The notes under the pieces: model-generated
The model's database searches: none
What the model was told of the DNA's origin: nothing
The model's input: only the letters and a program-made list of their open reading frames with translations
Shown here: positions 4,295-64,000 of the stretch, in pieces
Layout of the letters: the number at the start of each line of letters is the position of its first letter
How positions within the stretch are numbered: position 1 is the stretch's first letter
DNA from: an uncultured Candidatus Saccharibacteria bacterium
Lineage (GTDB): Bacteria; Patescibacteriota; Doudnabacteria; UBA920
Direction: 5' to 3'
DNA length: 64,000 bases
Assembly (NCBI GenBank): GCA_964348935.1
Contig: CAYGEJ010000003.1
Span: 7,287-71,286, forward strand
Position numbers and translations under genes: made by a program

Positions 4295-7200
4295 TTAAGG
4301 AATTTCAATAATTATTGGTACGCCTTTTCCAGTGTTAAACAAGATTAAAGGGGTGGAGCTAATTGGAGTAGTGGCCGCAACTCCAGCGCTTCTATTATAA
4401 CCAATTATGAACGAGTTTTGGAATCTGGCGGTAGACTGTGTGTATCCGGTTGGTATTGCTAATTGAGCTTCAAAAGTTAAAGCTCTTCTTAGTCCACTTG
4501 GGACATTATTTGCTGTTCCGGTAAGATTAAATACCAAAGTCTGGTTTGGAACCGTTCCAAATGCACAATATCGATTATTACCACTAGGCGTACAAGAACT
4601 ACCAGCAACTGCTCCGTCGTAAGTTAACTTTATTCCATTATAATAGGCGTTAAAGTCGGACTTGGTTGAAGGTTTCACCAAATTTGTTAAGGTATCCCTG
4701 ATAGTAATATTGGAAGAAGTTCCAGTACCACCGTCATTACACAAGTTAATTTGGAAAGTTACCACGTCGTTAAGTTTCAAATTAACCCCACCTGATAACG
4801 GATCTGTGCCTCCACAATTATTACTAGAGTATGCTGTTCCATTTATTCCAATAATATCTTTATCGGAAGTATTTAAGTTACCTGAGCCACAAGCTAAAAC
4901 CGCAGTCGGATTAAGGTTAGCTCCGCTATTTGGCGCAACTTTGGCTGTCTCAACTCCGCCAACTACAGCAGAAACCCAATAGTAATAAATACCTGCAGAA
5001 ACTGAATTTGTCCAAGTTAATGAAGTTAAACCACTCTGTACTAAATCTCCAGCTACCGGCGCTGACCCGGTGGTATTTCTGTAGACGTTGTATGAGGTCG
5101 CACTCGATACTGCAGACCAATTTATAGTCATTTGTGCGCAGGTTGAATTATCCAAAGAAACAGTGGTTGGACCTGGACCCCCAGATGGTGCGGTAACCGT
5201 GTAGGTAACTGTTAAAGTTCGACTGGTTGGATTCGAAGCTGGATCAGTTACAGTAATTATACAAGTATGAGTACCTACACCTACCGTACTTGGGCTATCC
5301 ACAGTAATTGCAACAGGTGTATATTGACCGACCGGAGATGAAGGCACAGCTCCAGTAACTGCAGGACCGGCATTATTAACTCCATTTACCCTACACCAGC
5401 TTTGGTTGCTAATTTCAGAATGCCAGACATCCGCACTACCAGTACTAGTAATTTGCAAAATTTGCTGGGAAGGAGCTGGAGAACCCGTTACTCCACTGAA
5501 AGACATTGTAGTTGGATTAAGCACAAATGAAGCCTGTGGTGCAGCGGTAACATCAACCGTGTCAACAACATTGCTTTGAGCGCAGACATTTGAACCAGTT
5601 CCTGCATTTAAGCTACAGGTAACTGTTTGAGTTCCGACTGTTGCCCCAGCAGTACAGTTAAACACTGCGGTGGTTTTATCATAAGAAGCCCATGTACAAG
5701 TACCACCACCTGTGACACTTGCGGTAATAGCATCTATACCGCTGCTGTCGTAATCACAGCGTGTAGTAAACGCCCCTCCTGCGGTAACTGAGGATGGAGA
5801 AACACTGCTTCTGGTAGGATCCGGGTTGTAATGCAAAGGTTCGCAAACCGGACCACCTCCGGAAGCAGTGCAATAATAATGGATAGTTCCGTCCGAGTTT
5901 CTCTTGGTTTGCCATGTTCTATTATTTACATCTGTCCACCTAAAAGGCTGCCCCCATGACTTTGGCGAAACACCTAAGTTTGTCCATGTAATATCTGGTG
6001 CTGGTGGTACCCATCCTGTGTTGGTATTCCATTTCAAATAAGTATTATTGTCTGTACCATAGTGGTAAACACCCCAGGCTGCAGGCGTATCTGTAAATGG
6101 CGGGTAATTTGTTATACCATTTAGGAAATCATAAGAGGAATTCCAGACACAAGGATTACCTAGAGAATAATTACAAGATTGATAGTGTATATTATTTCCC
6201 CAACCCCTTACAACCACAGCGTTTGCCCAATTATTTTGAATATTAGGTGTATTTGGCAAATAAATTCCAACCGGCTGGCTTGGAGTAGAACCACCACCAG
6301 GAATCTCTCTCCAGGTACTGTCACAAATAGCTTGATAGGGATTTACAACAATATTCCTTGTAAAACTGTCATTGTTGGAAGTACTTCCACCCCCAAAACA
6401 AACTATTGAATGAGTATCAGAGGCGGTTACACCTCCCAAAGGAGCGCTTCCATTTGCAGGCCAAGTAGTACCCAAAGAAGTAGCACCTCTAAATATTTCA
6501 CAATTTGTAGCATTGGTAGATGTCCAGACAAGCCCGCCTGTACTATTAGCAACAACATTTATTGGTCCGTCTACTGGTGCGCTTTGAGGCACGGAATCTC
6601 CCCAACCTTTAATGTCTACAACGGGAGCAGGTGCAACATTATAATTAATTCCTGCATCTTGGGGGTTATTAGTTGCGTTGGAGTCTGAAATACGAATTCC
6701 GCAGTCGCTATGCGGACCCACACCCACTATATTTGGAGCGCTTACTGTAACTGTTACATTTTGCGAAGTCCCGGCAGGAACAGTACCAGAAACTGCGCTT
6801 AAATTACACCAAGTAGCAGCACCATTCCTACTAAAAGTCCAGTTTAAAGACGAGCTACCGGTATTGGCTATATTTAAAGTTTGACCTGCAGGAGCTGTAC
6901 CACCGAAAATTCCGTTGAATGTCAAGTTTGTTGGCGAAAGTACTATTGTAGGCTTAAGAATATTACGAGTAAAGCTATCGGTATTAGAGGTTAACCCAGT
7001 AGAGCCTGTACAAACTATAGAATGCGTGTCTGACGAACTTACACCTCCCAAAGGAGCACTTCCATTTGCAGGCCAAGTAGTGCCCAAAGAAGTAGCACCT
7101 CTAAATATTTCACAACTTGAGGCATTGGACGTCCATATCAGACCTCCGGAAGTCATAGGATTAACATTAATTGGTCCGTCTACTGGTGCGCTTTGAGGCA

Positions 7201-8752
7201 CAGAATCTCCCCAACCTTTAATGTCTACAATAGGGGCGCCTACAATATTACGAGTAAAGCTATCGGTATTAGAGGTTAACCCAGTAGAGCCTGTACAAAC
7301 TATAGAATGCGTGTCTGACGAACTTACACCTCCCAAAGGAGCACTTCCATTTGCAGGCCAAGTAGTGCCCAAAGAAGTAGCACCTCTAAATATTTCACAA
7401 CTTGAGGCATTGGACGTCCATATCAGACCTCCGGAAGTCATAGGATTAACATTAATTGGTCCGTCTACTGGTGCGCTTTGAGGCACAGAATCTCCCCAAC
7501 CTTTAATGTCTACAATAGGAGGACATGCAGAAAGAGCAACTGGAGCACTTGCTCGAGTTGCAGAAAAGTTTCCAGAGGGGTTATGTAAGGAGTCTACCCA
7601 ATAATAATAAGTAGCTCCCGTAGGAGGATTGTCTACAAAACTTGTTACGTTTCCAACAACAGCAAAGGGCGTTGCAGGCTGCGCATTAGTAGTATGTCTA
7701 TAAAGCCTATAAGCATTTGCGTCCTGACCAGTGCCCCAAGTTAAAGTAATAGTTCTACTTGGGCAAATCCCTGTTATTGTATTTAAAAATGCAGGAACAC
7801 CTGTAATAACACGTAAAACCGGGTAAACAGTTGCGGTAGGCCCGGCGGCATAACCAACCCCAGTAACCGTAATTGAATAGTTACCAACACCAAGACCTGA
7901 AGTATTATTAACGGTTAGGGTGGCGGTATCATGTCCAAATGTAGTTGGGTCAACTACATTTGGCTCTGGGTCGCCATCTGAATCATAACTTGTTAGGGTT
8001 GGAGTAATAGTACAGTTTGCTCCCGCAGGACATACTGCCGACAAAGTTACCTTATTATAAAATCCTCCAAGCATTCGTACAGTTAAAAAATAAGATGTAC
8101 TACCGCCTCTTGTAATTGTTCTTGAAGAAGGGTCAACTATTATTTGAATACCGGGAACTACAACTGGAGGACAATCGCTTGAACAGTTGGCATTATTTTC
8201 TCCGGAAGAACAATAGGAATCACCACAGTATGGACCAACACCACTAGTGGTACTGCAAGTAGGATCTACCGGTTGGCAACTTCCCGGCGAACCAGCAGAC
8301 AAATCACAGAAAGTGTCACAAACAATGCTAGGAGGATGTGGACAATCTGCATTAGTTGAACAACCGCTTACAGGGGCAGAAGAGCAGGTATTTTCCTGTA
8401 AGGTTTTTGCACAAACCGCTCCTGGAGCAGACTGGGTTCCAGTAAAAACGCCCGTTACATCATCGTAACAATTCAACGATGCTATTGCATATGAGTAGCT
8501 GCAAGACTCGCATGTAGAATAAATTTGCTGTCCTGCGGGAGTAAAAGTGCAAACACCAGTTAGCTCTCTGGTACTAGCATTAGGATCAGGACCAGAACCA
8601 CAACCTGTAGGGAGCCCTGAAATACAGTATGCATTTACTTGAAAAACATAAAAAAAAGAAAAAATAAATAAAAATACAACTAGAAATTTAAAATTAAATA
8701 TATAATTATTTAAGAATAAAAAACTGCTTCTTATTAAATTTTTAAAATTCAT
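4295..8752 (-). CDS. Giant secreted/cell-surface protein: signal peptide, Cys-rich N-terminal region, then Thr/Ser/Gly-rich beta-domain repeats (Fn3/Ig-like)
   Basis: 1485 aa. N-terminal hydrophobic segment ends ...QVNA. More than 40 Cys fall in the first 200 residues. A 95-aa module occurs 3 times. Confidence 0.7.
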   Translation of the reverse strand: MNFKNLIRSSFLFLNNYIFNFKFLVVFLFIFSFFYVFQVNAYCISGLPTGCGSGPDPNASTRELTGVCTFTPAGQQIYSTCESCSYSYAIASLNCYDDVTGVFTGTQSAPGAVCAKTLQENTCSSAPVSGCSTNADCPHPPSIVCDTFCDLSAGSPGSCQPVDPTCSTTSGVGPYCGDSYCSSGENNANCSSDCPPVVVPGIQIIVDPSSRTITRGGSTSYFLTVRMLGGFYNKVTLSAVCPAGANCTITPTLTSYDSDGDPEPNVVDPTTFGHDTATLTVNNTSGLGVGNYSITVTGVGYAAGPTATVYPVLRVITGVPAFLNTITGICPSRTITLTWGTGQDANAYRLYRHTTNAQPATPFAVVGNVTSFVDNPPTGATYYYWVDSLHNPSGNFSATRASAPVALSACPPIVDIKGWGDSVPQSAPVDGPINVNPMTSGGLIWTSNASSCEIFRGATSLGTTWPANGSAPLGGVSSSDTHSIVCTGSTGLTSNTDSFTRNIVGAPIVDIKGWGDSVPQSAPVDGPINVNPMTSGGLIWTSNASSCEIFRGATSLGTTWPANGSAPLGGVSSSDTHSIVCTGSTGLTSNTDSFTRNILKPTIVLSPTNLTFNGIFGGTAPAGQTLNIANTGSSSLNWTFSRNGAATWCNLSAVSGTVPAGTSQNVTVTVSAPNIVGVGPHSDCGIRISDSNATNNPQDAGINYNVAPAPVVDIKGWGDSVPQSAPVDGPINVVANSTGGLVWTSTNATNCEIFRGATSLGTTWPANGSAPLGGVTASDTHSIVCFGGGSTSNNDSFTRNIVVNPYQAICDSTWREIPGGGSTPSQPVGIYLPNTPNIQNNWANAVVVRGWGNNIHYQSCNYSLGNPCVWNSSYDFLNGITNYPPFTDTPAAWGVYHYGTDNNTYLKWNTNTGWVPPAPDITWTNLGVSPKSWGQPFRWTDVNNRTWQTKRNSDGTIHYYCTASGGGPVCEPLHYNPDPTRSSVSPSSVTAGGAFTTRCDYDSSGIDAITASVTGGGTCTWASYDKTTAVFNCTAGATVGTQTVTCSLNAGTGSNVCAQSNVVDTVDVTAAPQASFVLNPTTMSFSGVTGSPAPSQQILQITSTGSADVWHSEISNQSWCRVNGVNNAGPAVTGAVPSSPVGQYTPVAITVDSPSTVGVGTHTCIITVTDPASNPTSRTLTVTYTVTAPSGGPGPTTVSLDNSTCAQMTINWSAVSSATSYNVYRNTTGSAPVAGDLVQSGLTSLTWTNSVSAGIYYYWVSAVVGGVETAKVAPNSGANLNPTAVLACGSGNLNTSDKDIIGINGTAYSSNNCGGTDPLSGGVNLKLNDVVTFQINLCNDGGTGTSSNITIRDTLTNLVKPSTKSDFNAYYNGIKLTYDGAVAGSSCTPSGNNRYCAFGTVPNQTLVFNLTGTANNVPSGLRRALTFEAQLAIPTGYTQSTARFQNSFIIGYNRSAGVAATTPISSTPLILFNTGKGVPIIIEIP
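6959..7528. repeat. Two perfect tandem copies of a 285-bp unit (95 aa) inside the giant gene; a diverged third copy lies at roughly 6390-6690
   Basis: Identical text from 6959 and from 7244. The overlapping plus-strand ORFs 6915..7196 and 7221..7481 translate identically. Confidence 0.85.
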
Positions 8753-8915: not shown

Positions 8916-8958
8916 AATCTTGGTAGATCCTTACCAAGTCCAAGGAGGACTTGAAGCG

Positions 8959-11124
8959 ATGACAAAACTAACTCAATTGTTAGTGGTTTTGGCATTTGCA
9001 ACAACCGTTGCCCTTGCTCAACCCACCATAAAAGTGAGCGGATTGTTGGGGGAAGTTACCCCCATTCGGATGCTTACAAACAGCCGAGGAGACACTGTCG
9101 TTTCGGCAAGAACGAATACAAGCGCTGTTCTATTGTTGAAGCTAGCCAATCAAAGCGATTTCACAGTCGCCTACAATGACCAAGGCAAAACCGACAAGAT
9201 TGCACTGGGCGGGTCTGGTAACCCGTTTACAAATGACCTAAACATCCAGAATTTTGCCGTCTACTTCACCACGCTGGACAGCCTGGGAACACAACGAAAA
9301 ACTTGGGAAATGCCTTTATCGAGCGGGCCTGCGAAAATGCTCGGCGAATTGGGTATGGATGTAAAAGTCCTACTAGTAAATTTTAACTACAGTCCAGTCG
9401 TGAAAAAACTGGAACTGGTGTCTGCGGTCAGGGAAGATTCCAGTGGTCGAAAGCTGATGTATGCAATTATCACTGGATATCTCGGATACTTTTCTCTTCA
9501 ACCCGATGGCAGCTTCCGAGAAGTAATGCTTACCGGTCACAATCAGTATATTTTTCCACCATTTGGCGTCAAAGTCGGATCGACCGACATAGACTTCACC
9601 ATAATTGGTGGTGCGGGTATATTGGAGCTAAGTAATTACAACCTCCAAACCAAGACCCAAAAACTGGTCGCCAAAACAGGTAGCAGCGTCGGGAACGAAA
9701 GCTTGCAAACAATGGCGGCAAGTATGGACAGCTGGAAAAAAACGACATTCCGCTACAAAACTGCCAACGGCGGTCGGGTGGCACAGGTCGTGGACGGTCA
9801 GACGACTGTCCTTTACGCCAGCAGTCAAGCAGTCGACGACCACGCGGTCAACATCGCGCACCTCTTCGTGCGCCAAGGGAACCGTGTTCTCATGGTCGAC
9901 GGCTTGAACTCCGCAATCCCAATCGCCTCGGTCGGCGACACGTTCGCCGGCAAGACGATTCGGGAGTTCTCTCTTCCAACACTAACCGCGCACGGGTGCT
10001 CGGTGAACTTCATGGCAAAAACCGACACTACTTCAGTGTCCGGCTCGCCGCATCTGTTTACGACTGCCCTCCCCTGTGTTTTGCAGGTACCGACAACTGA
10101 AGTAAAAGTTGGCGAAGCGGTAATTCTTTATGGTCAGAACCTTGGAACGGTCAACGACACGAAAATCGTTGACGCCGATAATGGCAATGTGTATACTCCA
10201 AACCTCATTACAAATGATACGGTAGTGTTCACGGCGCCTCGAATTGGCACCCGGTTCAAGGTAAAGACTAAAGGTCTTACCAGCAACACCTTTACGGTGA
10301 GAATTAACTCTGCTGTCGTACCGGTGATTGACAAGATCACAACGGCAACCGGCACCACCGGCGCAGTAGCTCCGAATGGGTTGTTCACTGTTTGGGGACA
10401 GAATTTGTCTCCTATCGTGTCAACCCGGTTCAACTACTACAACCCTGGCATCACGGTAGCCACTCGGCTACCCCTGCCTCGGCTTCTCGCCGGTGCAAAA
10501 GTGCTTGTAAACGGAGCAGAAATTCCGCTCCTGTTTGGTACCTGCTACGAGAGTGGCATCTGTCAATTCAACGCACAAGCACCAAGCACGCTCTTTGGCA
10601 CCACCGCTACGGTGGAGGTCCAGCGCTACACCGACGTTAACGGACGAGCACTTGAGGCCACAAGCCAAAAGTTCACCGTCGCCGTCCAACCCGTTGCCCC
10701 TGTAGTGTTCAGCTTTCCGAAAAATGAAGAAACACCTGACATTTCGGAACTGACTGTAATGCAAAATGGCGACAAAGCCTACCAGCTTGTAACCAGAAGT
10801 ACGCCCATGAAAGGTGGGCAAACCGTCGTATTGTATTCTACTGGTTTCGGACTAACCAGTCCTGAAATTCCTGTCGGCGAAGCTGCTGGAGAAACCTACG
10901 CTCCAGTTACTAGCCAAGTGAAGACTTGGCTCAAGTACAGGACCGGAGGCAATGAGAAGACTGAAGAGGCGGGCAATGTGGCAGTAGCATCACCACAGTT
11001 TCCTGGGGTAAACCAGGTAAACGTCAAATTGCCTGTTGTCCTTCCCGACCCTGGCACCAAGACGTTTCTCGTCGTAAAAGTTGGAGAGGAGTATGTTCCT
11101 GATATAGAACTCCCTTACAACTAG
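8959..11124 (+). CDS. Secreted IPT/TIG-like repeat protein, compositionally foreign
   Basis: The start was moved to ATG 8959, which follows an AAGGAGGA Shine-Dalgarno. The signal peptide is MTKLTQLLVVLAFATTVALA. Motifs VILYGQNLGT and LFTVWGQNL repeat. The C-terminal ...GNVAVASPQFPGVNQVNVKLP resembles acidobacterial TIG-protein C-termini. A 60-nt spot count gives about 52% GC. Confidence 0.6.
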   Translation: MTKLTQLLVVLAFATTVALAQPTIKVSGLLGEVTPIRMLTNSRGDTVVSARTNTSAVLLLKLANQSDFTVAYNDQGKTDKIALGGSGNPFTNDLNIQNFAVYFTTLDSLGTQRKTWEMPLSSGPAKMLGELGMDVKVLLVNFNYSPVVKKLELVSAVREDSSGRKLMYAIITGYLGYFSLQPDGSFREVMLTGHNQYIFPPFGVKVGSTDIDFTIIGGAGILELSNYNLQTKTQKLVAKTGSSVGNESLQTMAASMDSWKKTTFRYKTANGGRVAQVVDGQTTVLYASSQAVDDHAVNIAHLFVRQGNRVLMVDGLNSAIPIASVGDTFAGKTIREFSLPTLTAHGCSVNFMAKTDTTSVSGSPHLFTTALPCVLQVPTTEVKVGEAVILYGQNLGTVNDTKIVDADNGNVYTPNLITNDTVVFTAPRIGTRFKVKTKGLTSNTFTVRINSAVVPVIDKITTATGTTGAVAPNGLFTVWGQNLSPIVSTRFNYYNPGITVATRLPLPRLLAGAKVLVNGAEIPLLFGTCYESGICQFNAQAPSTLFGTTATVEVQRYTDVNGRALEATSQKFTVAVQPVAPVVFSFPKNEETPDISELTVMQNGDKAYQLVTRSTPMKGGQTVVLYSTGFGLTSPEIPVGEAAGETYAPVTSQVKTWLKYRTGGNEKTEEAGNVAVASPQFPGVNQVNVKLPVVLPDPGTKTFLVVKVGEEYVPDIELPYN

Positions 11125-27979: not shown

Positions 27980-28049
27980 ATGGTAGGTTATAAGTTATAG
28001 GTGTTAAGTTTTCGCTTTAAACTACAAGCTATTAGCTAACAGCTATAAG

Positions 28050-42741: not shown

Positions 42742-42814
42742 CGAGTAAAATATATAACTTAGCAAATTAGCACACTATATCTGTATTATCAGTTTTTATC
42801 TGTGTATCTGTGGT

Positions 42815-44095
42815 CTAAAAGCCTTCGTAATCATGCATGGTTAATTGGGCTTCAACTTTCTTGATTATTTCTATAACCACAGAAACCACAATGAGCAAAC
42901 TAGTACCTCCAAAAGTTAAGGAAGTCGTACCAGTATAATTTTGCATCACCAAAGGCAAGATAGCAATTACCGCCAAAAAGAAAGCACCAGCTAGGGTAAT
43001 TCTACTTAGAACCATACTTAGAAAATCTGCTGTCTGACCACCAGGTCTAAGACCCGGGACAAAACCGCCATTCTTTTGTACATTGTCGGCAATCTCAGTT
43101 GGATTAAACACAACAGCAGTGTAAAAATATGTAAAAGCCATAACCAATACAAAATAAGTTACGCCATAAAACAATCCTTGAGAGTTAAACAAGGCAATAG
43201 TCTTAGTTGCTAGGTTTGCCAAAACTGGACTCTTTGCACTCAAGAAAAATTGCGCTATCATTGCTGGAAAAAGCATAACAGAAATAGCAAAAATAATAGG
43301 AATTACACCGGCTTGGTTTAATCTTAAAGGCAAATGGGTATTAACACCACCAAAAAGTTTATTTCCTCGAACACGTTTGGCGTACGCAATAGGTATATTC
43401 CTCTGAGCCTCGGTCACCAGCACCACTCCGGCAATCACAATTAACACCATCGCAGCAAAAGCTAAAACCATTGGGAGTTTTGTTGGGTCATACCAGCTTG
43501 TAATAAAACCAAAATTAGCAGGAAGAGAAGCCACAATACCTGCAAAAATAATTAAGGAAACACCGTTTCCGATATCAAATTCCGACATAATTTCACCAAG
43601 CCACATCATTAACATAGTTCCGGCAGTTACAGAAATTAACACTGTAAACCATTGAAAAGGAGTAAAAACACCTAATACCGAAGCACCGCCCTGGCTTTGT
43701 AAAAGTCTAATTGTACCAAAAGCCTGAAGTGGTGCCAAGGCTATGGTTAAATAGCGAGTATATTGATTTATTTGAGTACGTCCGGCTTCGCCACCTTCTT
43801 TTTGCATTTCTACTAAAGATGGTATAACAATAGTTAACAATTGCATTATAATAGAGGCCGTAATATAAGGACCAACGCCTAACATGGCAACTGAAAAGTT
43901 GGTTAGACCACCACCGGAAAAAATATCCAATAAATTAAAAAATTGGCTTTGGGCAAAATAACTCTTAAGTCCGCTAACATCTATACCCGCAATCGGCACA
44001 TGGGCCAAAACTCGGGTTAAAAATAAAAGACCCAACACAATTAAAATTTTATTGCGAAGGTCTTTAGTTTTCCAAATTAAAGAAATTTTGTTCAT
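42815..44095 (-). CDS. secY: Preprotein translocase subunit SecY
   Basis: 426 aa, 10 TM segments, typical N-terminus and order after rplO. Confidence 0.95.
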   Translation of the reverse strand: MNKISLIWKTKDLRNKILIVLGLLFLTRVLAHVPIAGIDVSGLKSYFAQSQFFNLLDIFSGGGLTNFSVAMLGVGPYITASIIMQLLTIVIPSLVEMQKEGGEAGRTQINQYTRYLTIALAPLQAFGTIRLLQSQGGASVLGVFTPFQWFTVLISVTAGTMLMMWLGEIMSEFDIGNGVSLIIFAGIVASLPANFGFITSWYDPTKLPMVLAFAAMVLIVIAGVVLVTEAQRNIPIAYAKRVRGNKLFGGVNTHLPLRLNQAGVIPIIFAISVMLFPAMIAQFFLSAKSPVLANLATKTIALFNSQGLFYGVTYFVLVMAFTYFYTAVVFNPTEIADNVQKNGGFVPGLRPGGQTADFLSMVLSRITLAGAFFLAVIAILPLVMQNYTGTTSLTFGGTSLLIVVSVVIEIIKKVEAQLTMHDYEGF

Positions 44096-54671: not shown

Positions 54672-54968
54672 ATGCAAATAGTTCTGGACCAAAAAGGCTT
54701 CTACGAAGCCGCACTGCTCGGCCTCGAGGCGCAAAAAACGCGCATCGAGAAAATGATCACCGGCATTAAGCAACTCGCCGGCAAAAAACCGGTAACGACG
54801 AACATCGCCGAGGCGGCCAAAGTCGCCATCGGCGCCCGCAAAAAGCACGCCAACGGTGCCGGCGCCAAACGCAAAAAACGGAACCTGAGCCCCGAAGCTC
54901 GCCAGCGTATCGCCGATGCGCAAAAGAAGCGCTGGGCGGCGTTCCGGAAGGACGGCGCGGCGGCCTAA
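54672..54968 (+). CDS. 98-aa basic Lys/Arg/Ala-rich protein, possibly nucleic-acid-binding
   Basis: Spot counts of about 55% GC. AGGGAGA Shine-Dalgarno. Helical N-terminus, then GARKKHANGAGAKRKKRNLSPEARQRIADAQKKRWAAFRK. Confidence 0.5.
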   Translation: MQIVLDQKGFYEAALLGLEAQKTRIEKMITGIKQLAGKKPVTTNIAEAAKVAIGARKKHANGAGAKRKKRNLSPEARQRIADAQKKRWAAFRKDGAAA

Positions 54969-55647: not shown

Positions 55648-55673
55648 ATAAACTATTAGCTAACAGCTATAAG

Positions 55674-57665: not shown

Positions 57666-57721
57666 ATTTTTTTCTTTAATGATTTATCTGCGTTATCTGT
57701 CTTAATCTGCGTATCTGTGGT

Positions 57722-58120
57722 TTATATATCATCTAAATCTAATTTTGGACCTTCAAAGTCAAAAGAAGGGTCTATAACTTCTTCTCTCAAATCAACCGCT
57801 CCGGGACGCGTGATTGGATGACCGTCAAACCGAGTAAGATCTGGCGGATGACTAATAACAGTTGGTCCTTTTTCTACTTGTTTATTTGAAATTGCAATAT
57901 CTGATACTACCGGAGTAATATCTTCAGTTAATTGCGCGTTTAATATTTCCTTATTAATTTTTTCAACATCTAGCATTTGCTTCTGTAGTTTACCAATAAG
58001 TAGTTTTTGATACTCCTCTACAGGCATAATTACCAAACTTGCATTCCCCTGCTCGTCCAATATAAAAAACTTTCCTCCATCCGCCTTCGCTAAATTAATA
58101 AGGTCATTTAAATTGTTCAT
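57722..58120 (-). CDS. Hypothetical acidic protein
   Basis: 132 aa, no motif recognised. Confidence 0.35.
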   Translation of the reverse strand: MNNLNDLINLAKADGGKFFILDEQGNASLVIMPVEEYQKLLIGKLQKQMLDVEKINKEILNAQLTEDITPVVSDIAISNKQVEKGPTVISHPPDLTRFDGHPITRPGAVDLREEVIDPSFDFEGPKLDLDDI

Positions 58121-58533
58121 AAGTTTATAAATATTAAGCGTGTCATTCCAGACTCGCCTGCCCTCCTTTGGAGAGATCCGGAATCCATGAATATTCTATA
58201 TTAAGTTTCCCTCCACCAGCTGGCGGATTATCGAGAATGACAAATCAATAACCTCCCTTAATCCCTCCTCTGCAAGGAGGGAAATTACTGCAGTTGCAGT
58301 TATTCCTCTCCCTTTTAGGGGAGAAGGTTAGCCTGCCCGCCGTAGCCTTGGCGAAGGAGGGGTGAGGGTACTTAATCCTCTAACTCTCTTAATTATACTC
58401 GCCCGCTCGGGCATTTACAACTACTATAATTTTTGATATTCTACAGTGTCGTCACTAGCGCCGGCTAAACGACCCAATGCAAACCCGCTTTGAAGTTATT
58501 GGACTAGAATGACCGGTTGAGAGAGGAGGAAAT

Positions 58534-58755
58534 ATGGCACTTGAAGATTCAACAGCTAACACACCCCAAGACGAATCAGATCAAGCAAAACAAGCAAGGA
58601 GAATGCTTCTCCAAGAATTCTTGCTTGCATCAACAGAAAACCCAAGTCTCATCGCTGGGTTTTTTACCGAACCTATCCTTCAAGAAATAGTTGATCGAAT
58701 AACAAAGCGATCAAGACTTCTTACACAGCTGAAAACGGCCTTAAAACGCCGCTAG
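58534..58755 (+). CDS. 73-aa acidic/helical small protein
   Basis: A GAGGAGGA Shine-Dalgarno lies 5 nt upstream. Elevated GC. Followed by a T-rich terminator-like tract. Confidence 0.4.
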   Translation: MALEDSTANTPQDESDQAKQARRMLLQEFLLASTENPSLIAGFFTEPILQEIVDRITKRSRLLTQLKTALKRR

Positions 58756-58913
58756 CACTCTCGCCCAACGTCTACCGACCGCGGGCTTTTTTATTTGCCT
58801 ATTTACATTGCATAATTAATTTGTTATTCTGTACTGTCATCCTGGAACCGGCAGGATAGATACGTCCCAATGTAGGACGGAGTTAGTTTAGTACCGATAG
58901 TTAGGAGGAAACT

Positions 58914-59141
58914 ATGAGAAGATACATCATACCTTTGTCAGGGTTAGTGGTTTGCCTTGAATTATTGTATTGGGAGGCAACCCATAGAGACATGATTCCA
59001 CAGTTGTCTGACGGCATCAAAATAACGATGCTGATCATGACTCTCTTGGGGATGGGGGTGTTCGTATTCGGCATTGCCAAACCGCTGTGGAATGACTCCT
59101 GGAAGTACTGGGAGAAACGATTGAGAGGAGCGACGAAATGA
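58914..59141 (+). CDS. 75-aa two-TM membrane peptide
   Basis: TAGGAGGAA Shine-Dalgarno. Hydrophobic helices LVVCLELLYW and ITMLIMTLLGMGVFVFGIA. Its stop overlaps the next start (ATGA). Confidence 0.45.
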   Translation: MRRYIIPLSGLVVCLELLYWEATHRDMIPQLSDGIKITMLIMTLLGMGVFVFGIAKPLWNDSWKYWEKRLRGATK

Positions 59142-59359
59142 CCGCACGACACAAGTGCACTGTCTCCGGAAGAGTGCCTGTTATGCAAGCACGACGGAAT
59201 TCAAACATTATCCCATTTGGGGAAACCGTCGGTCTAGAAGGACCCACATGGAAAGGAGTACGCAAGACCGTCCCCATTCTACTATACGAAGGGAAAGATA
59301 AGTACGACACTGCATCTATCCCCATCGCATTCTGCCCGTTCTGCGGGAAAAAACTCTAA
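59138..59359 (+). CDS. 73-aa zinc-ribbon-like small protein (CxxS...CPFC)
   Basis: Start ATGA coupled to the upstream gene, preceded by GAGAGGAG. The Cys pair FCPFCGKK is at the C-terminus. Confidence 0.4.
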   Translation: MTARHKCTVSGRVPVMQARRNSNIIPFGETVGLEGPTWKGVRKTVPILLYEGKDKYDTASIPIAFCPFCGKKL

Positions 59360-59377
59360 CCAAAACCTCGGCGCAGT

Positions 59378-59436
59378 GCCCAGAGCCAGCGGTTCAATTA
59401 ATACCTGAACTTCTGGCGCTGGGCTTTTTTATTTTT
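59378..59436 (+). terminator. Intrinsic terminator after the coupled pair
   Basis: GCCCAGAGCCAG...CTGGCGCTGGGC stem followed by a T6AT5 run. Confidence 0.6.
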
Positions 59437-59463
59437 AATTCTGGTTGATCACGATTTTGATAT

Positions 59464-59502
59464 AAAAAAATTTGAGCCGTCCACCTAAAAGGCAGACGGC
59501 TC
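59464..59502 (-). terminator. Intrinsic terminator for the minus-strand gene 59514..60065
   Basis: GAGCCGTC...GACGGCTC stem preceded by an A7 run. Confidence 0.5.
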
Positions 59503-59513
59503 ATGCGCCAGGA

Positions 59514-60065
59514 TTAATCGAGAGTGATTTTTGACAGGGGGTAGGGATGTACGTATCGGTAACCTTCCTTAACATCTAAGAATTCGAACCTGACCCAGCT
59601 GCCTTTGAACCAACCACTACTTGTGGATAGGAATGTTCTGCTGGAATCGCCAATTCCCACCGTTCCGCAAGAAATCTCACAACGGGAATTCAGGGGTGGC
59701 CAAGGCAAACCATTTTCTGTGAACTCGACGCTGTTTTGGTTAGGTTCTTGTTGTTCCCATTCTAAGATGGTGCATACAACCGGAAACCGAGCTTCCAGGA
59801 TCCTTACCACAACCCTATCAAGATTACCCGGCACATCAAAAAGAAATTCGACGCGTTGTCCCACCTTCAAGTTGTGTGGGTAAATACCTCTATCCCTAAC
59901 CACCTTGGGCGTCTTATCCGAAGACGTAAGCACCAACCACAACCCTTGCAACCCAATAATGCTTTTGCATGGCTTAAATGGGAAAATTATAATAAAAAAC
60001 CCTGCAGCTAAAATAGAAAGGACAGCGACTACAATCATCACGATAGCCTGACTTAAAATCTTCAT
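59514..60065 (-). CDS. N-terminally membrane-anchored extracytoplasmic protein
   Basis: The start was set at the internal Met (MKIL...), which follows a GGAGGAGAAGAG Shine-Dalgarno; the track ORF begins 8 codons earlier at a non-ATG start. One TM. The body has moderately elevated GC. Confidence 0.45.
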   Translation of the reverse strand: MKILSQAIVMIVVAVLSILAAGFFIIIFPFKPCKSIIGLQGLWLVLTSSDKTPKVVRDRGIYPHNLKVGQRVEFLFDVPGNLDRVVVRILEARFPVVCTILEWEQQEPNQNSVEFTENGLPWPPLNSRCEISCGTVGIGDSSRTFLSTSSGWFKGSWVRFEFLDVKEGYRYVHPYPLSKITLD

Positions 60066-60130
60066 CTCTTCTCCTCCAGTTTGTATCAAAAAAACACTTT
60101 ATAACAATTTCGCGCTTATGTCAATTGTAA

Positions 60131-60162
60131 AAGGGCTAACCCCATATGGGGTTAGCCCTTTA
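60131..60162 (-). terminator. Hairpin 3' of fusA
   Basis: AAAGGGCTAACCCC-ATAT-GGGGTTAGCCCTTT is a perfect 14-bp stem. The T-tract on the minus strand is short. Confidence 0.45.
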
Positions 60163-60239
60163 TCTGTTTTATCTGTTTTAATCCGCGCCTGCCTGCCAAA
60201 GATTGAGGCATAACCGCTTGCGGGCAGGCATCCGCGGTC

Positions 60240-62363
60240 TTACATACCTTTTCTTACGTTGATACCCGCGCGAGATTCAATAATCTTAGCAGCAACGTTC
60301 TTTGGTACTTCTGCGTAATGGTCAAATTCCATAGTGTAGGAAGCTTGACCTTGAGTCATAGAGCGAAGTGCTGTAGCGTATCCGAACATTTCGGAAAGCG
60401 GAACAAAACTGTCTATAACTTTCAAATGCAAGCGGTCTGTCATTTCGTTAATTTGAGCTCTCTTAGAGTTCAAGTCACCAATAACATCACCCATGTTTGT
60501 TTCTGGAGTTATAACTTCAACTTTCATTATAGGTTCCAAAATAATTGGGTCGGCACGCTTAATGACTTCTTGCAAACCTTTAGAAGCAGCAATTTTGAAA
60601 GCCATTTCGCTAGAGTCAACATCGTGGTAAGAACCGTCGTAAAGAGCAATTCTAAAGTCTACAAGTGGGTAACCGGCAATAACACCGTTAGCTGCAGATT
60701 CTTGAATACCTTTGTCGACTGGTTTAATAAATTCTTTTGGAATAGCTCCACCAACAATTTCGTCGACGAATTCATAACCTTTACCGCGTTCAAGAGGTTC
60801 GGCACGTAAGTAAACGTGTCCGTATTGACCTTTACCACCAGACTGACGAATATATTTACTTTCAGCAGTTGCAGTATTCTTGATGGTTTCTTTGTAAGCT
60901 ACTTCTGGTTTACCAACATTAGCCTCTACTTTAAACTCGCGCTTCATACGGTCAACAATAATTTCAAGGTGCAATTCACCCATACCGGAAATAATTGTTT
61001 GTTGAGTTTCTTCGTCACCGCGAATACGGAAAGTTGGGTCTTCTTCGGCAAGCTTAGACAAAGCAATACCCATTTTTTCTTGGTCAGCTTTGGTCTTAGG
61101 CTCAATAGACATAGAAATAACTGGCTCAGCGAATTTAATGCGTTCAAGCATCATTGGTTTGTCTACGTCGCAAAGAGTATCTCCAGTAAATGTGTTTTTA
61201 GGTCCCACAAGAGCACAAATGTCTCCAGCAAAAACTTCTTTAACTTCGTCGCGTTCGTCGGCACGCATACGAACAATACGTCCTACGCGTTCCTTGTCGC
61301 CAGTTCTGGCGTTAAGTACATAACTCCCAGCTTCAAGTTTTCCAGCGTAAACGCGGAAGAAACAAAGTCTACCTACGAATGGGTCGGTAGCAATTTTAAA
61401 AGCCAAAGCTGTAAATGGCTCTTCATCGCTTGGTTTGCGCTCTAATGGCTCACCGGATTTTAATTCAGTTCCTTTAGTATTTCCTCTGTCAATTGGACTT
61501 GGTAGAAAATTTACAACGGCATCCAACACTGTTTGTACAATAATACCGCGTCCGTCTCCGCCAAGTACTGGAAAGAATTTTCCACCTTGAACAGACTTAC
61601 GAATCGCCCCTAAAAATTCTTGTTCAGTTAATTCTTGTCCGCCCAAATACTTCTCCATTAATACATCATCAATCTCAACTACTTTTTCAAGCAATCTTTG
61701 ACGATATTCTTTACACTTTTCTACCATATCGGCAGGCACTTCACCAACAGTAAATTCCTTATCAGTAAAATCTTTATAGGTATAAGATTTCATACCAACA
61801 AGATCTACTACTCCGTTTATTTCTTTTTCAAAACCAATTGGTAATTGAATTGGAAAGGCATTTGGTGAGAGGCGTTTTAAAATGGAGTCTAAGGACTTAT
61901 AAAAATCTCCTCCAGTTTGGTTTATTTTGTTAATAAAACAAATACGAGGAACATTATACTTGTCGGCTTGGCGCCATACAGTCTCAGACTGTGGCTCCAC
62001 ACCCATTTTACCGTCGAATACAGTAACAGCACCGTCTAGCACACGTAAAGAACGCTCTACTTCTACTGTAAAGTCTACGTGACCTGGAGTATCTATAATG
62101 TTAATTTTGTGTTTAACATCTCCAGCTAATTTAATAAATTTTGGCGCCCAGTAACAAGTAACAGCGGCAGCAGTAATTGTAATACCGCGTTCACGTTCTT
62201 GTTCCATCCAATCGGTTGTGGTCTCACCTTCGTGAACCGCGCCAATTTTGTGGGTCATACCGGTGTTGTATAAAACACCTTCAGTAACAGTGGTCTTACC
62301 AGCGTCAATGTGAGCGATAATACCAATATTACGGGTAACTTCTATGGGATATTCTCTTGGCAT
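60240..62363 (-). CDS. fusA: Elongation factor G
   Basis: 707 aa. [14 protein letters not shown] and NKID G-motifs. Confidence 0.97.
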
Positions 62364-63458: not shown

Positions 63459-63828
63459 TTTGTTAGTTCCTAGTTTCTAGTCGCTAGTGACTAGTTATTT
63501 ATAAATTTGAATAAGTGCGATGTTTTTGACTAGTATCTAGCAACTAGCCACTCGCAACTAACTTTGAGCAATAAAAAACTGACAAAAGATGTCAGATCTT
63601 CTGCTTTCGCCTAATTGGTACTCATCAGAAACCTCTTGATGTATCCCTGCATTTACTCCTCTCCCCTTGCGGAAGAGGTTAGATGAGGGGTTTGTTTCCC
63701 AAAACTAGCGACCGATAAAGGTAAATCCCATATTAACTTAATTTATAATGTTTTCAAATCCTAAATCTGAAATCTTATATCTTAAATCTTTCTGGGGGTT
63801 TCTTATTCAATTAAAGTTATTTTACAAC

Positions 63829-63858
63829 ATTGACAAGATTATGTCAATTTGGTAATTT
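63829..63858 (+). promoter_or_regulatory. Candidate promoter overlapped by the operator-like palindrome ATTGACA-AGATTA-TGTCAAT
   Basis: TTGACA (63830-63835), a 17-nt spacer, then TAATTT. The palindrome spans 63829-63848. Confidence 0.4.
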
Positions 63859-63889
63859 TATAACCTAAAACCTTACAGGAGAGGAATAA

Positions 63890-64000
63890 ATGAAGACTGC
63901 CTGGTTGATTTGTAGCAACTACAGGATTCGTATGGGTCTTGCTCAAGCCTTGGGCATGGCTAATTACACTGTTGAGTTTGTCGTTTCTGAATTTGAACTC
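63890..64000 (+). CDS. Partial ORF (5' end only) running off the window
   Basis: An AGGAGAGG Shine-Dalgarno lies 6 nt upstream of the ATG. MKTAWLICSNYRIRMGLAQALG... It is not in the ORF track because it is truncated. Confidence 0.3.
   Translation, partial: MKTAWLICSNYRIRMGLAQALGMANYTVEFVVSEFEL

Follow-up and report, generated by a model that had tools for sequence, protein, structure and literature searches.

Antisense microprotein genes between fusA and p132 in a Doudnabacteria str cluster: conserved promoter motifs and variable coding content

Organization of the block

The 64-kb stretch of Doudnabacteria DNA analyzed here, referred to as the window, carries within its str gene cluster a block of short genes (positions 58121-60239), located between fusA and a gene coding for a 132-aa protein, here named p132, which is in turn followed by tuf. 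A first-pass annotation had described the block as a higher-GC cassette of small-protein genes. All the features it listed are present where it had placed them. The GC content, estimated at about 43-50%, was measured as 0.43-0.50, compared with about 0.35 for the genome baseline and 0.40 for fusA. The hairpin-dense non-coding stretch, given as about 410 nt, spans 413 nt (58121-58533), and both of its strands are more stable than shuffled controls (z-scores of -3.7 and -3.0). Three plus-strand open reading frames (ORFs) of 73, 75 and 73 aa follow, the last two overlapping by ATGA, and are closed by a strong terminator (-29.4 kcal/mol and a U-run). The convergent minus-strand gene for a membrane-anchored protein does carry its own Shine-Dalgarno (SD) site and terminator, its product being 183 aa long, rather than 180, when read from the ATG located behind GGAGG. 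The features of the block and of the adjoining p132 gene are listed below, with the GC content at third codon positions (GC3) of the genes; energies are minimum free energies (MFE), and z-scores refer to shuffled controls.

57722-58120, minus strand: p132, native Doudnabacteria-specific gene, context rather than cargo; GC3 0.25
58121-58391, minus strand: hairpin-dense 5' leader of p132, 271 nt; MFE -94.7 kcal/mol, z -3.4
58392-58420, minus strand: native p132 promoter, TTGTAAA-N16-TATAAT; single match in the 64 kb (expected 0.00)
58414-58442, plus strand: predicted antisense promoter, copy 1, for ORF1; its -35 box overlaps that of the p132 promoter by 7 nt
58534-58755, plus strand: ORF1, 73 aa, probably a helical microprotein; GGAGG at 58525-58529; GC3 0.31
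58802-58830, plus strand: predicted antisense promoter, copy 2, for ORF2-ORF3, TTTACA-N12-TTTGTTATTCT
58914-59141, plus strand: ORF2, 75 aa, hydrophobic microprotein whose two hydrophobic segments are putatively transmembrane; GGAGG at 58904-58908; GC3 0.61
59138-59359, plus strand: ORF3, 73-aa basic zinc-ribbon microprotein (H5-K-C7 ... C66-P-F-C69-G); GC3 0.50
59378-59435, plus strand: ORF2-ORF3 terminator; stem 59378-59424, z -3.6, then U6AU5
59473-59503, minus strand: ORF4 terminator, 14-bp stem and T-run; -24.4 kcal/mol, z -5.7
59514-60065, minus strand: ORF4, 183 aa, N-terminal membrane anchor and probably beta-rich domain; GC3 0.47
60096-60124, minus strand: predicted promoter-like site of ORF4, TTGACA-17-TAAAGT; consensus scan, 10/12 matches
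60130-60161, no strand assigned: perfect 16+16 palindrome, terminator of fusA, possibly bidirectional; right limit of the variable cargo
60159-60187, minus strand: native heptad-repeat motif of the ACAGATAA type, after the stop codon; direct repeat (D4) with 57683-57711
60178-60232, minus strand: GC-rich hairpin, similar to repetitive extragenic palindromic (REP) elements, in the 3' untranslated region (UTR) of fusA directly after its stop codon; fold of 60120-60245, z -6.1

GC3, which ranges between 0.23 and 0.34 in native genes, separates the genes of the block from the native ones better than plain GC. By this measure ORF2, ORF3 and ORF4 are compositionally foreign, while ORF1 is native-like. 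The description of the block as modular small-protein cargo holds for the self-contained arrangement of its units and for the foreign GC3 of the last three genes; it fits ORF1 less well, as this gene has a native-like composition and its terminator (58763-58792) is weak (z 0.13).

The window is 100% identical to ENA contig ERZ27247837 k141_813485, and both junctions of the block are covered at 100% identity by three further assemblies (Logan ERR3094292, ENA ERZ27247817 and ERZ27247828). The block is not an assembly chimera, because independent assemblies match its junctions at 100%. Exact-protein look-ups of ORF4, ORF3, p132 and fusA returned identical arrangements only, and no empty-site or variant contigs of the same strain were found among them.

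The genes of the block and their relatives

The annotated frame is the best scoring of the six for ORF1, ORF2 and ORF4; one gene caller missed ORF2 and ORF3. The ATGA overlap between ORF2 and ORF3 is of the kind that provides translational coupling. ORF4 lies in the orientation of the operon, convergent with ORF1-ORF3, and its GGAGG is found at 60073-60077 (CCTCC on the plus strand).

Homologues of the four proteins were searched for exhaustively by phmmer among 1.84 billion representative proteins. Besides self matches, a single relative of ORF3 was found, P0005 (76 aa, E 1.3e-10), with an identity of 53% by phmmer and of 49% by BLASTP. ORF1, ORF2 and ORF4 have no homologue either in this collection or in the 68 related loci (619 kb; loci are designated by L-numbers below). 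A word-indexed search with the concatenated four ORFs as query yielded nothing, and a profile search with ORF3 and P0005 recruited no additional members. Pfam, PHROG, PADLOC and NCBIfam gave just sub-threshold generic zinc-ribbon matches for ORF3, and neither the block nor its ORFs were matched in phage and plasmid collections. Two candidate matches were discarded: the best match of ORF1, a 78-aa ORF upstream of rpsL in L005, is not significant (E 0.16 in a small database), and an IMG/VR match to ORF3 (L048) is partial, being the generic FCPFCG zinc-ribbon C-terminus of a protein of a high-GC phage.

P0005 comes from a sister lineage, whose fusA protein is 93% identical; its gene is located antisense in the rpsG-fusA gap and has its own promoter-like motif, SD site and terminator. 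The two family members thus occupy different gaps, fusA-p132 for ORF3 and rpsG-fusA for P0005. They have the putative zinc ligands H5, C7, C66 and C69 in common, and nonsynonymous differences per site are rarer than synonymous ones (pN 0.33 vs pS 0.79). ORF2 and ORF3 were also considered as a type II toxin-antitoxin pair, but no Pfam or PADLOC family was found for them, and P0005 occurs alone.

p132 and the gap between fusA and tuf

Homologues of p132 were found in 33 GTDB species representatives, 11 of which are titled Candidatus Doudnabacteria and the others generically, the set being taken as one Doudnabacteria-related clade, as well as in 24 JGI metagenome contigs, none of which carries a relative above 60% identity. 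In all 27 species representatives in which fusA and tuf could both be placed, the gene is located between them, and the same fusA-p132-tuf order is found in the five longest metagenome contigs carrying all three genes; in every locus containing fusA, p132 is directly downstream of it. The separation of fusA from tuf is thus ancestral in the clade and was not caused by the block, as the first-pass annotation had supposed, because p132 is always found between the two. A gene for a 195-aa lipoprotein is located in the p132-tuf gap in relatives too. The p132 gene itself has its own conserved promoter and no SD site; its N-terminus is weakly similar to Phd/YefM or RelB (E 0.004-0.03), and its C-terminus carries a conserved acidic motif, DLREEVID.SFDFEGPK.

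The lengths of the rpsG>fusA, fusA>p132, p132>tuf and tuf>rpsJ gaps all differ strongly from species to species; that of fusA>p132 ranges between 87 and 2119 nt and is greatest in the window. Alignment of the gap ends across species reveals a common plan, consisting of the fusA stop codon, a heptad motif, a GC-rich terminator hairpin, variable content, a TTGTAAAG-N15-TATAAT promoter, a short leader and p132. The p132 promoter is found once per locus in 24 other loci, on the sense strand and just upstream of p132. Given its position in the window (58392-58420), the hairpin-dense stretch 58121-58391 is the 5' leader of p132, 271 nt long here vs about 40-75 nt in relatives. The leader is enlarged by palindromes (about 58142-58245 and 58305-58375) similar to REP elements or miniature inverted-repeat transposable elements (MITEs). 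The element at 58305 has a second copy at 63658 (63658-63692), and its portion 58332-58361 is similar to hairpins located downstream of tuf in L017 and L030. Rfam searches of the window produced nothing at the gathering threshold; the sole sub-threshold match, rli51, is chance-level (E 0.059) and falls outside the stretch, at 57695-57816.

At the other end of the gap, a hairpin is found at the position equivalent to the 60130-60161 palindrome in L005, L015-L017, L021, L026, L029, L036 and others. The sequence 60158-60239 aligns with a stretch upstream of rpsL in L017 (74% over 82 nt), and the GCCTGCC arms of the 60178-60232 hairpin are found again at 58156 and 58331. Sequences 58121-58420 and 60130-60239 being native, the variable cargo shrinks to about 58421-60129. 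About 500 nt of the block are therefore native, namely the fusA 3' UTR and terminator, the conserved p132 promoter and the enlarged, hairpin-rich p132 leader.

Heptad repeats of the ACAGATAA/CGCAGAT type stand directly 3' of the stop codons of several minus-strand genes of the window (42778-42815, 57683-57721 and 60159-60187). Similar heptad-type repeats are located after fusA in most Doudnabacteria loci and before fusA in some, and an AGCTA-type repeat after stop codons is shared by 55653-55673 and 28029-28049. Such repeats may be elements of the 3' UTR or sites bound by a protein. The 29-nt direct repeat formed by 57683-57711 and 60159-60187 was discarded as a pair of att sites, the same motif being present at 42778-42815 and after fusA in relatives; besides this motif, no att-type flanking repeats were found at the block.

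A conserved antisense promoter motif

The regions upstream of ORF1, ORF2 and P0005 have in common a 29-nt motif, TTTACA-N12-TTTGNTANTCT, which reads as a sigma-70-type -35 box, a 17-nt spacer and a TGn-extended -10 box, and is accordingly described below as a predicted promoter. It has exactly two matches in the window, both within the block (expected 0.03). The motif of copy 2 also precedes P0005 and 14 further antisense microgenes of relatives.

The motif was searched for in 55 related loci. After dereplication, 17 exact matches were obtained, all on the strand antisense to the str genes and confined to the gaps beside fusA or to the region upstream of rpsL; downstream of each come a leader, GGAGG, ATG and an unrelated short ORF of about 70 aa. 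An nhmmer profile run on both strands of about 620 kb gave 33 matches at E<1, again all antisense, and confined to the rpsG>fusA or fusA>p132 gaps, to the region upstream of rpsL or, in contigs without fusA, to that upstream of p132. About half of them (16/33) were outside the training set, and these stand directly upstream of SD-led ORFs. A match in IMG/VR (L077) falls inside an RNA-virus polyprotein and was discarded as due to chance.

In the fusA>p132 gap the antisense -35 box (TTTACAA) and that of p132 (TTGTAAA) are reverse complements of each other. The resulting back-to-back geometry, with its fixed overlap of 7 nt, is found in the window and in seven other species (L016, L021, L029, L036, L053, L055 and L062). 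This fixed overlap makes ORF1 the divergent partner of p132 in a conserved, predicted bidirectional promoter. Since the antisense promoter motifs are conserved at exactly these positions, the slots that they define are ancestral, and the coding cargo alone varies.

Two subtypes of leader, about 55-68 nt long and with one hairpin each, are recognizable between the antisense promoter motif and the SD site, in front of unrelated ORFs:

L017 5357-5424, L021 7705-7768, L029 7805-7869, L055 482-547: leader subtype A
L018 4944-5005, L028 5232-5286, L053 1406-1461: leader subtype B

These conserved leaders could be cis-regulatory RNAs, the sequences being too few to show covariation. Towards the end of the window, a third antisense unit is seen upstream of rpsL: a promoter-like site at 63830-63858 (plus strand), two mismatches away from the motif, is followed by an SD site and by an ATG at about 63890 (plus strand), which opens a 154-aa ORF running off the window (63830-64000).

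Shine-Dalgarno sites and classes of slot genes

GGAGG is found between -22 and -4 in three of the four genes of the block (ORF1, ORF2 and ORF4), but in none of the 59 native genes of the window (Fisher p 1e-4). Native upstream regions are A/T-rich and SD-less, with 4-of-5 matches in 5 of the 59. The host appears to start translation largely without SD pairing.

The scan was extended to the clade by searching for GGAGG-N4-9-ATG in front of ORFs of 40 aa or more. SD-led antisense ORFs number 32 in the 38 kb of fusA-flanking gaps; the other 420 kb contain 29, of which 18 are located upstream of rpsL or p132. The lengths of slot ORFs peak around 60-90 aa, within an overall range of about 45-145 aa. 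Two classes of products recur, small hydrophobic, putatively transmembrane proteins similar to ORF2, and zinc-ribbon proteins similar to ORF3. In six-frame translations, the CPxCG motif occurs 11 times antisense beside fusA vs twice elsewhere (Poisson p 5e-21). In L025, paralogous zinc-ribbon microgenes of about 70 aa (CC...FCPNCG) are located antisense on both sides of fusA (2057-2275 and 5137-5346; E 1e-10).

Recognizable orthologues occupy the same slot in the sister species L029/L036, L038/L039 and L042/L044. In four pairs of cargo genes pN is well below pS, and these are therefore protein-coding genes under purifying selection.

Cargo turnover between related loci

The GC3 of cargo genes is 0.55 +/- 0.09, irrespective of that of host core genes, which ranges from 0.30 to 0.69 (r 0.23), which would be expected if the genes came from a pool common to several lineages.

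Cargo also differs between the near-identical strains L005 and L006. Their loci are 99.9% identical from fusA to rpsL and 99.1% identical on the tuf side, but the genes that separate fusA from the p132 orthologue are not the same. Compared with L005 (5955-6085), L006 (6994-7669) has a 546-nt insertion at the fusA stop codon, which contains an SD-led microgene for an 81-aa hydrophobic protein with two hydrophobic segments. The insert is bounded by a second copy of the fusA 3' end, 71 nt long, coding for the same amino acids with synonymous differences; the stop codon of the functional fusA copy is changed from TAA to TAG, and mismatches are clustered in the 5' half of the p132 orthologue. A small cassette bounded by a duplicated fusA 3' end is also present in L008. 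The L005/L006 pattern bears the signature of inter-lineage recombination with anchor points in the conserved flanks, and could have arisen by a Campbell-type event or by double crossover. Within the block of the window, no remnants of fusA, p132 or other core genes were found.

HicA/HicB pairs and proteins resembling GIY-YIG nucleases and DUF559 endonucleases, all of them recognized by eye, are encoded in the p132>tuf and fusA>p132 gaps of L016, L021, L025, L026, L028, L032 and L036, and the DUF559-like family occupies different gaps in different species. These neighbouring sites tolerate selfish cargo.

Discussion

We consider it rather probable that the block represents, in this genome, an architecture found throughout Candidatus Doudnabacteria, in which antisense slots are filled with lineage-specific microprotein genes. 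According to this model, the str cluster would be cut into separate transcription units (rpsL-rpsG, fusA, p132 and tuf), with antisense expression slots in both gaps flanking fusA and upstream of rpsL. Each slot would consist of the conserved TTTACA-N12-TTTGNTANTCT promoter, a leader, a GGAGG SD site and an ORF of about 45-145 aa differing between lineages; in the fusA-p132 gap, its promoter would stand back to back with that of p132. The window would contain two such slots, one with ORF1 and one with the coupled ORF2-ORF3, together with ORF4 as a third unit in operon orientation. The antisense motif does occur twice beside fusA (58414-58442 and 58802-58830), in front of short ORFs with GGAGG and ATG (ORF1 and ORF2). 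Cargo would be replaced by homologous recombination, the arms being provided by the end of fusA or rpsG together with the promoter, the leader or p132, and a dedicated recombinase would not be needed. The source would be a pool common to Doudnabacteria of differing GC content. The microproteins may be co-regulated via the common promoter and, as a low-confidence suggestion, could be accessory, fast-evolving envelope or nucleic-acid-binding proteins involved in conflict, such as toxin/immunity or phage exclusion.

Several points weigh against this model. The promoters are predictions at the level of the consensus, and the background against which their specificity was assessed outside the str region consists of the window and of flanks of at most 8 kb per locus. 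The CPxCG and promoter motifs were defined after viewing this locus, and the loci sampled within the clade are phylogenetically related, so that p-values overstate independence. The block of the window carries no recombination scar of its own, the route of exchange being extrapolated from L005/L006 and from composition, and ORF1, with its native-like GC3, may be an old resident. AlphaFold models are too poor to back any function: that of ORF3 has a pLDDT (predicted local distance difference test) score of 51, and that of ORF4, scoring 44 overall, is confident only in helix 3-27 (pLDDT 75-93).

The picture drawn by the first-pass annotation, namely a discrete, horizontally acquired mobile cassette (an integrative element, integron-like or MITE-borne) located between fusA and tuf and of one family with a cassette between tuf and rpsJ, would account for the elevated GC3 of ORF2, ORF3 and ORF4, for the orphan status of the ORFs, for the 29-nt flanking direct repeat and for the small cassettes bounded by a duplicated fusA 3' end in L006 and L008. 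It is nevertheless largely refuted, and we regard it as highly improbable. Neither the block nor the genes within about 8 kb of it yielded an integrase or transposase, and when every ORF of the block was scanned against Pfam, PHROG, PADLOC and NCBIfam, no integrase, transposase or relaxase was recognized. The direct repeat, a motif found after stop codons throughout the genome, leaves the block without boundary repeats; fusA or p132 remnants were not found inside it; and each unit has its own promoter-like site, unlike integron cassettes. The block is also unmatched in phage and plasmid records, the viral match of ORF3 covering just the generic zinc-ribbon C-terminus, and it has nothing in common with the first cassette. 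Synteny in relatives, which had been proposed as the refuting comparison, gave a divided answer: the position and both antisense promoter motifs are ancestral to the clade, but the genes themselves are not. Another explanation is a purely vertical history, in which ancient resident slots and ORFs have evolved so quickly as to lose recognizable orthology and the differences in GC3 reflect selection on the mRNAs rather than transfer. Conservation of the promoter slots, the same-slot orthologues of the three pairs of sister species, two of which are under purifying selection, and the native-like GC3 of ORF1 all agree with such a history. It is less easily reconciled with the presence of the ORF3 family in different slots in its two lineages, with the L025 paralogues in both slots, with the different cargo and recombination scars of the near-identical L005 and L006, with the lack of correlation between cargo and host GC3, and with the unrelated fold classes of the cargo (hydrophobic transmembrane-like, zinc ribbon, helical), and we judge it unlikely.

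Even less probable, at about the level of the mobile cassette, is that the antisense transcripts are themselves the functional product, insulating or regulating the units around fusA, with the ORFs being incidental. Conservation does reside in the promoter and, within subgroups, in the leader rather than in the coding sequence, and the units face the ends of rpsG and fusA and have strong, partly bidirectional terminators. However, in each unit GGAGG is correctly spaced from ATG, while native genes have no SD site; ORF lengths concentrate around 60-90 aa; pN is much lower than pS in four pairs; and the same protein classes, zinc ribbon and small hydrophobic transmembrane-like, recur. An assembly chimera, or non-coding DNA with chance ORFs, is suggested by the atypical composition and by the failure of one gene caller to report ORF2 and ORF3, but its probability is negligible in view of the independent assemblies that cross both junctions at 100% identity, of the annotated frames of ORF1, ORF2 and ORF4 scoring best of six, of the conserved ORF3 homologue and of SD, promoter and terminator signals being in register.

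With the architecture of antisense slots proposed here, what had looked like foreign DNA inserted into a ribosomal operon becomes a conserved locus design of a phylum of the candidate phyla radiation (CPR), in which fixed antisense promoters and rare SD sites would act as sockets for fast-turnover microgenes beside an essential translation factor. If this is true, the 29-nt promoter motif followed by GGAGG would be a searchable signature for unannotated CPR microproteins. The locus would also be a natural example of gene exchange with conserved core genes as homology arms, and a test case for the meaning of SD-led translation where other genes do not use SD. It further warns that a GC-atypical block in a conserved operon need not derive from a single insertion event.

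A more ambitious version would combine a phylum-wide system of fixed antisense promoters and rare SD platforms, microgenes swapped by recombination, and expression dependent on the state of the ribosome. As native genes are SD-independent, it can be proposed that slot microproteins are made only by ribosomes with an accessible anti-SD sequence. This version is doubtful; if it were true, microprotein synthesis would depend on the condition of the translation machinery whose genes lie alongside, and the locus would be of a new kind, joining cassette exchange without a recombinase to ribosome-state-dependent expression.

Comparison with known systems

Accessory-gene hotspots, or islets, between conserved core genes are a concept familiar from the literature on hotspots of horizontal gene transfer. 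The gaps studied here resemble them in having variable content between conserved flanks, turnover between near-identical strains and scars in flanking core genes, as well as selfish cargo (HicAB, GIY-YIG, DUF559) in the neighbouring gaps of relatives. The same flanking core genes do enclose differing content, with gaps of 87-2119 nt and unrelated ORFs, as in L005 vs L006. They differ from hotspots in scale, from a few hundred bases to 2 kb, in carrying microgenes, and in being strictly antisense slots in which a promoter and SD platform is kept.

Putative mobile promoters, described as homologous promoter regions upstream of non-homologous genes, are similar in that one conserved promoter precedes unrelated ORFs. 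Unlike them, the copies described here are not dispersed, but stand at fixed syntenic positions and, at p132, with a fixed 7-nt overlap with its promoter.

The phage moron is an independent promoter-ORF-terminator unit of atypical composition (PMC3594210). The units of the block are alike in having their own promoter-like site, a strong SD site, a short ORF and a predicted intrinsic terminator (weak for ORF1), in being located between essential genes without disturbing them, and in the atypical composition of ORF2, ORF3 and ORF4, ORF1 not being atypical. They are unlike morons in being chromosomal, within the str cluster, with rpsL, rpsG, fusA, tuf and S10-operon genes as neighbours, and in using one conserved, locus-specific predicted promoter across the phylum. 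No phage genes were found near the block, the PHROG matches being limited to the sub-threshold zinc ribbon and the phage collections giving no match.

Integron cassettes are likewise short, unrelated, exchangeable ORFs beside a conserved expression element, but the units of the block each have their own predicted promoter and terminator, and their exchange is apparently driven by homology. Neither the block nor the annotated portion of the contig, which spans 56.6-74.9 kb, was found to encode an integrase domain or intI. No attI/attC-type sites were recognized, although no dedicated attC model was run, and the hairpins following the ORFs have terminator-like T-runs.

Short hydrophobic proteins with strong SD sites, long structured leaders and an intergenic location, such as ORF2 and several slot ORFs, recall type I toxin-antitoxin systems and other small hydrophobic toxins; however, ORF2 has 75 aa with two predicted transmembrane segments, many slot ORFs are soluble, and no antisense RNA partner was identified.

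A rare SD-led gene in bacteria that translate independently of SD is known in rpsU of Flavobacterium johnsoniae (PMC7797042, PMC13000453). The genome studied here parallels these SD-blind Bacteroidia in having SD-less native genes and a few strong GGAGG genes beside translation genes; the SD-led genes are here hypervariable orphans, unlike the ribosomal protein gene of the Bacteroidia.

The tuf-rpsJ cassette and other islands of high GC

The block had been taken to share its architecture with a first cassette, located between tuf and rpsJ in the same window, and possibly its origin. The resemblance is limited to both having antisense, self-contained small genes. Comparison of the two cassettes with each other and a repeat search of the window revealed nothing in common beyond chance 12-15-mers, and the two do not share DNA, protein, boundary repeat or a copy of the antisense promoter motif, so that they do not form one family of elements. 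A gene of the first cassette for a 98-aa basic protein (54672-54968, plus strand, GC3 0.73) has homologues in the same gap and in the same antisense orientation in L020, L029, L036, L047 and L060, and belongs to the conserved content of the tuf>rpsJ gap rather than being a private insertion. PHROG gives weak matches for its product (E 0.005-0.02), including one to a homing-endonuclease family.

Other islands of higher GC content (0.42-0.51) are present in the window. An orphan gene with no Pfam match, coding for a 734-aa protein, is located at 8920-11124 (plus strand), and another orphan, coding for 1485 aa and showing a marginal match to BACON_2, spans 4295-8752 (minus strand).

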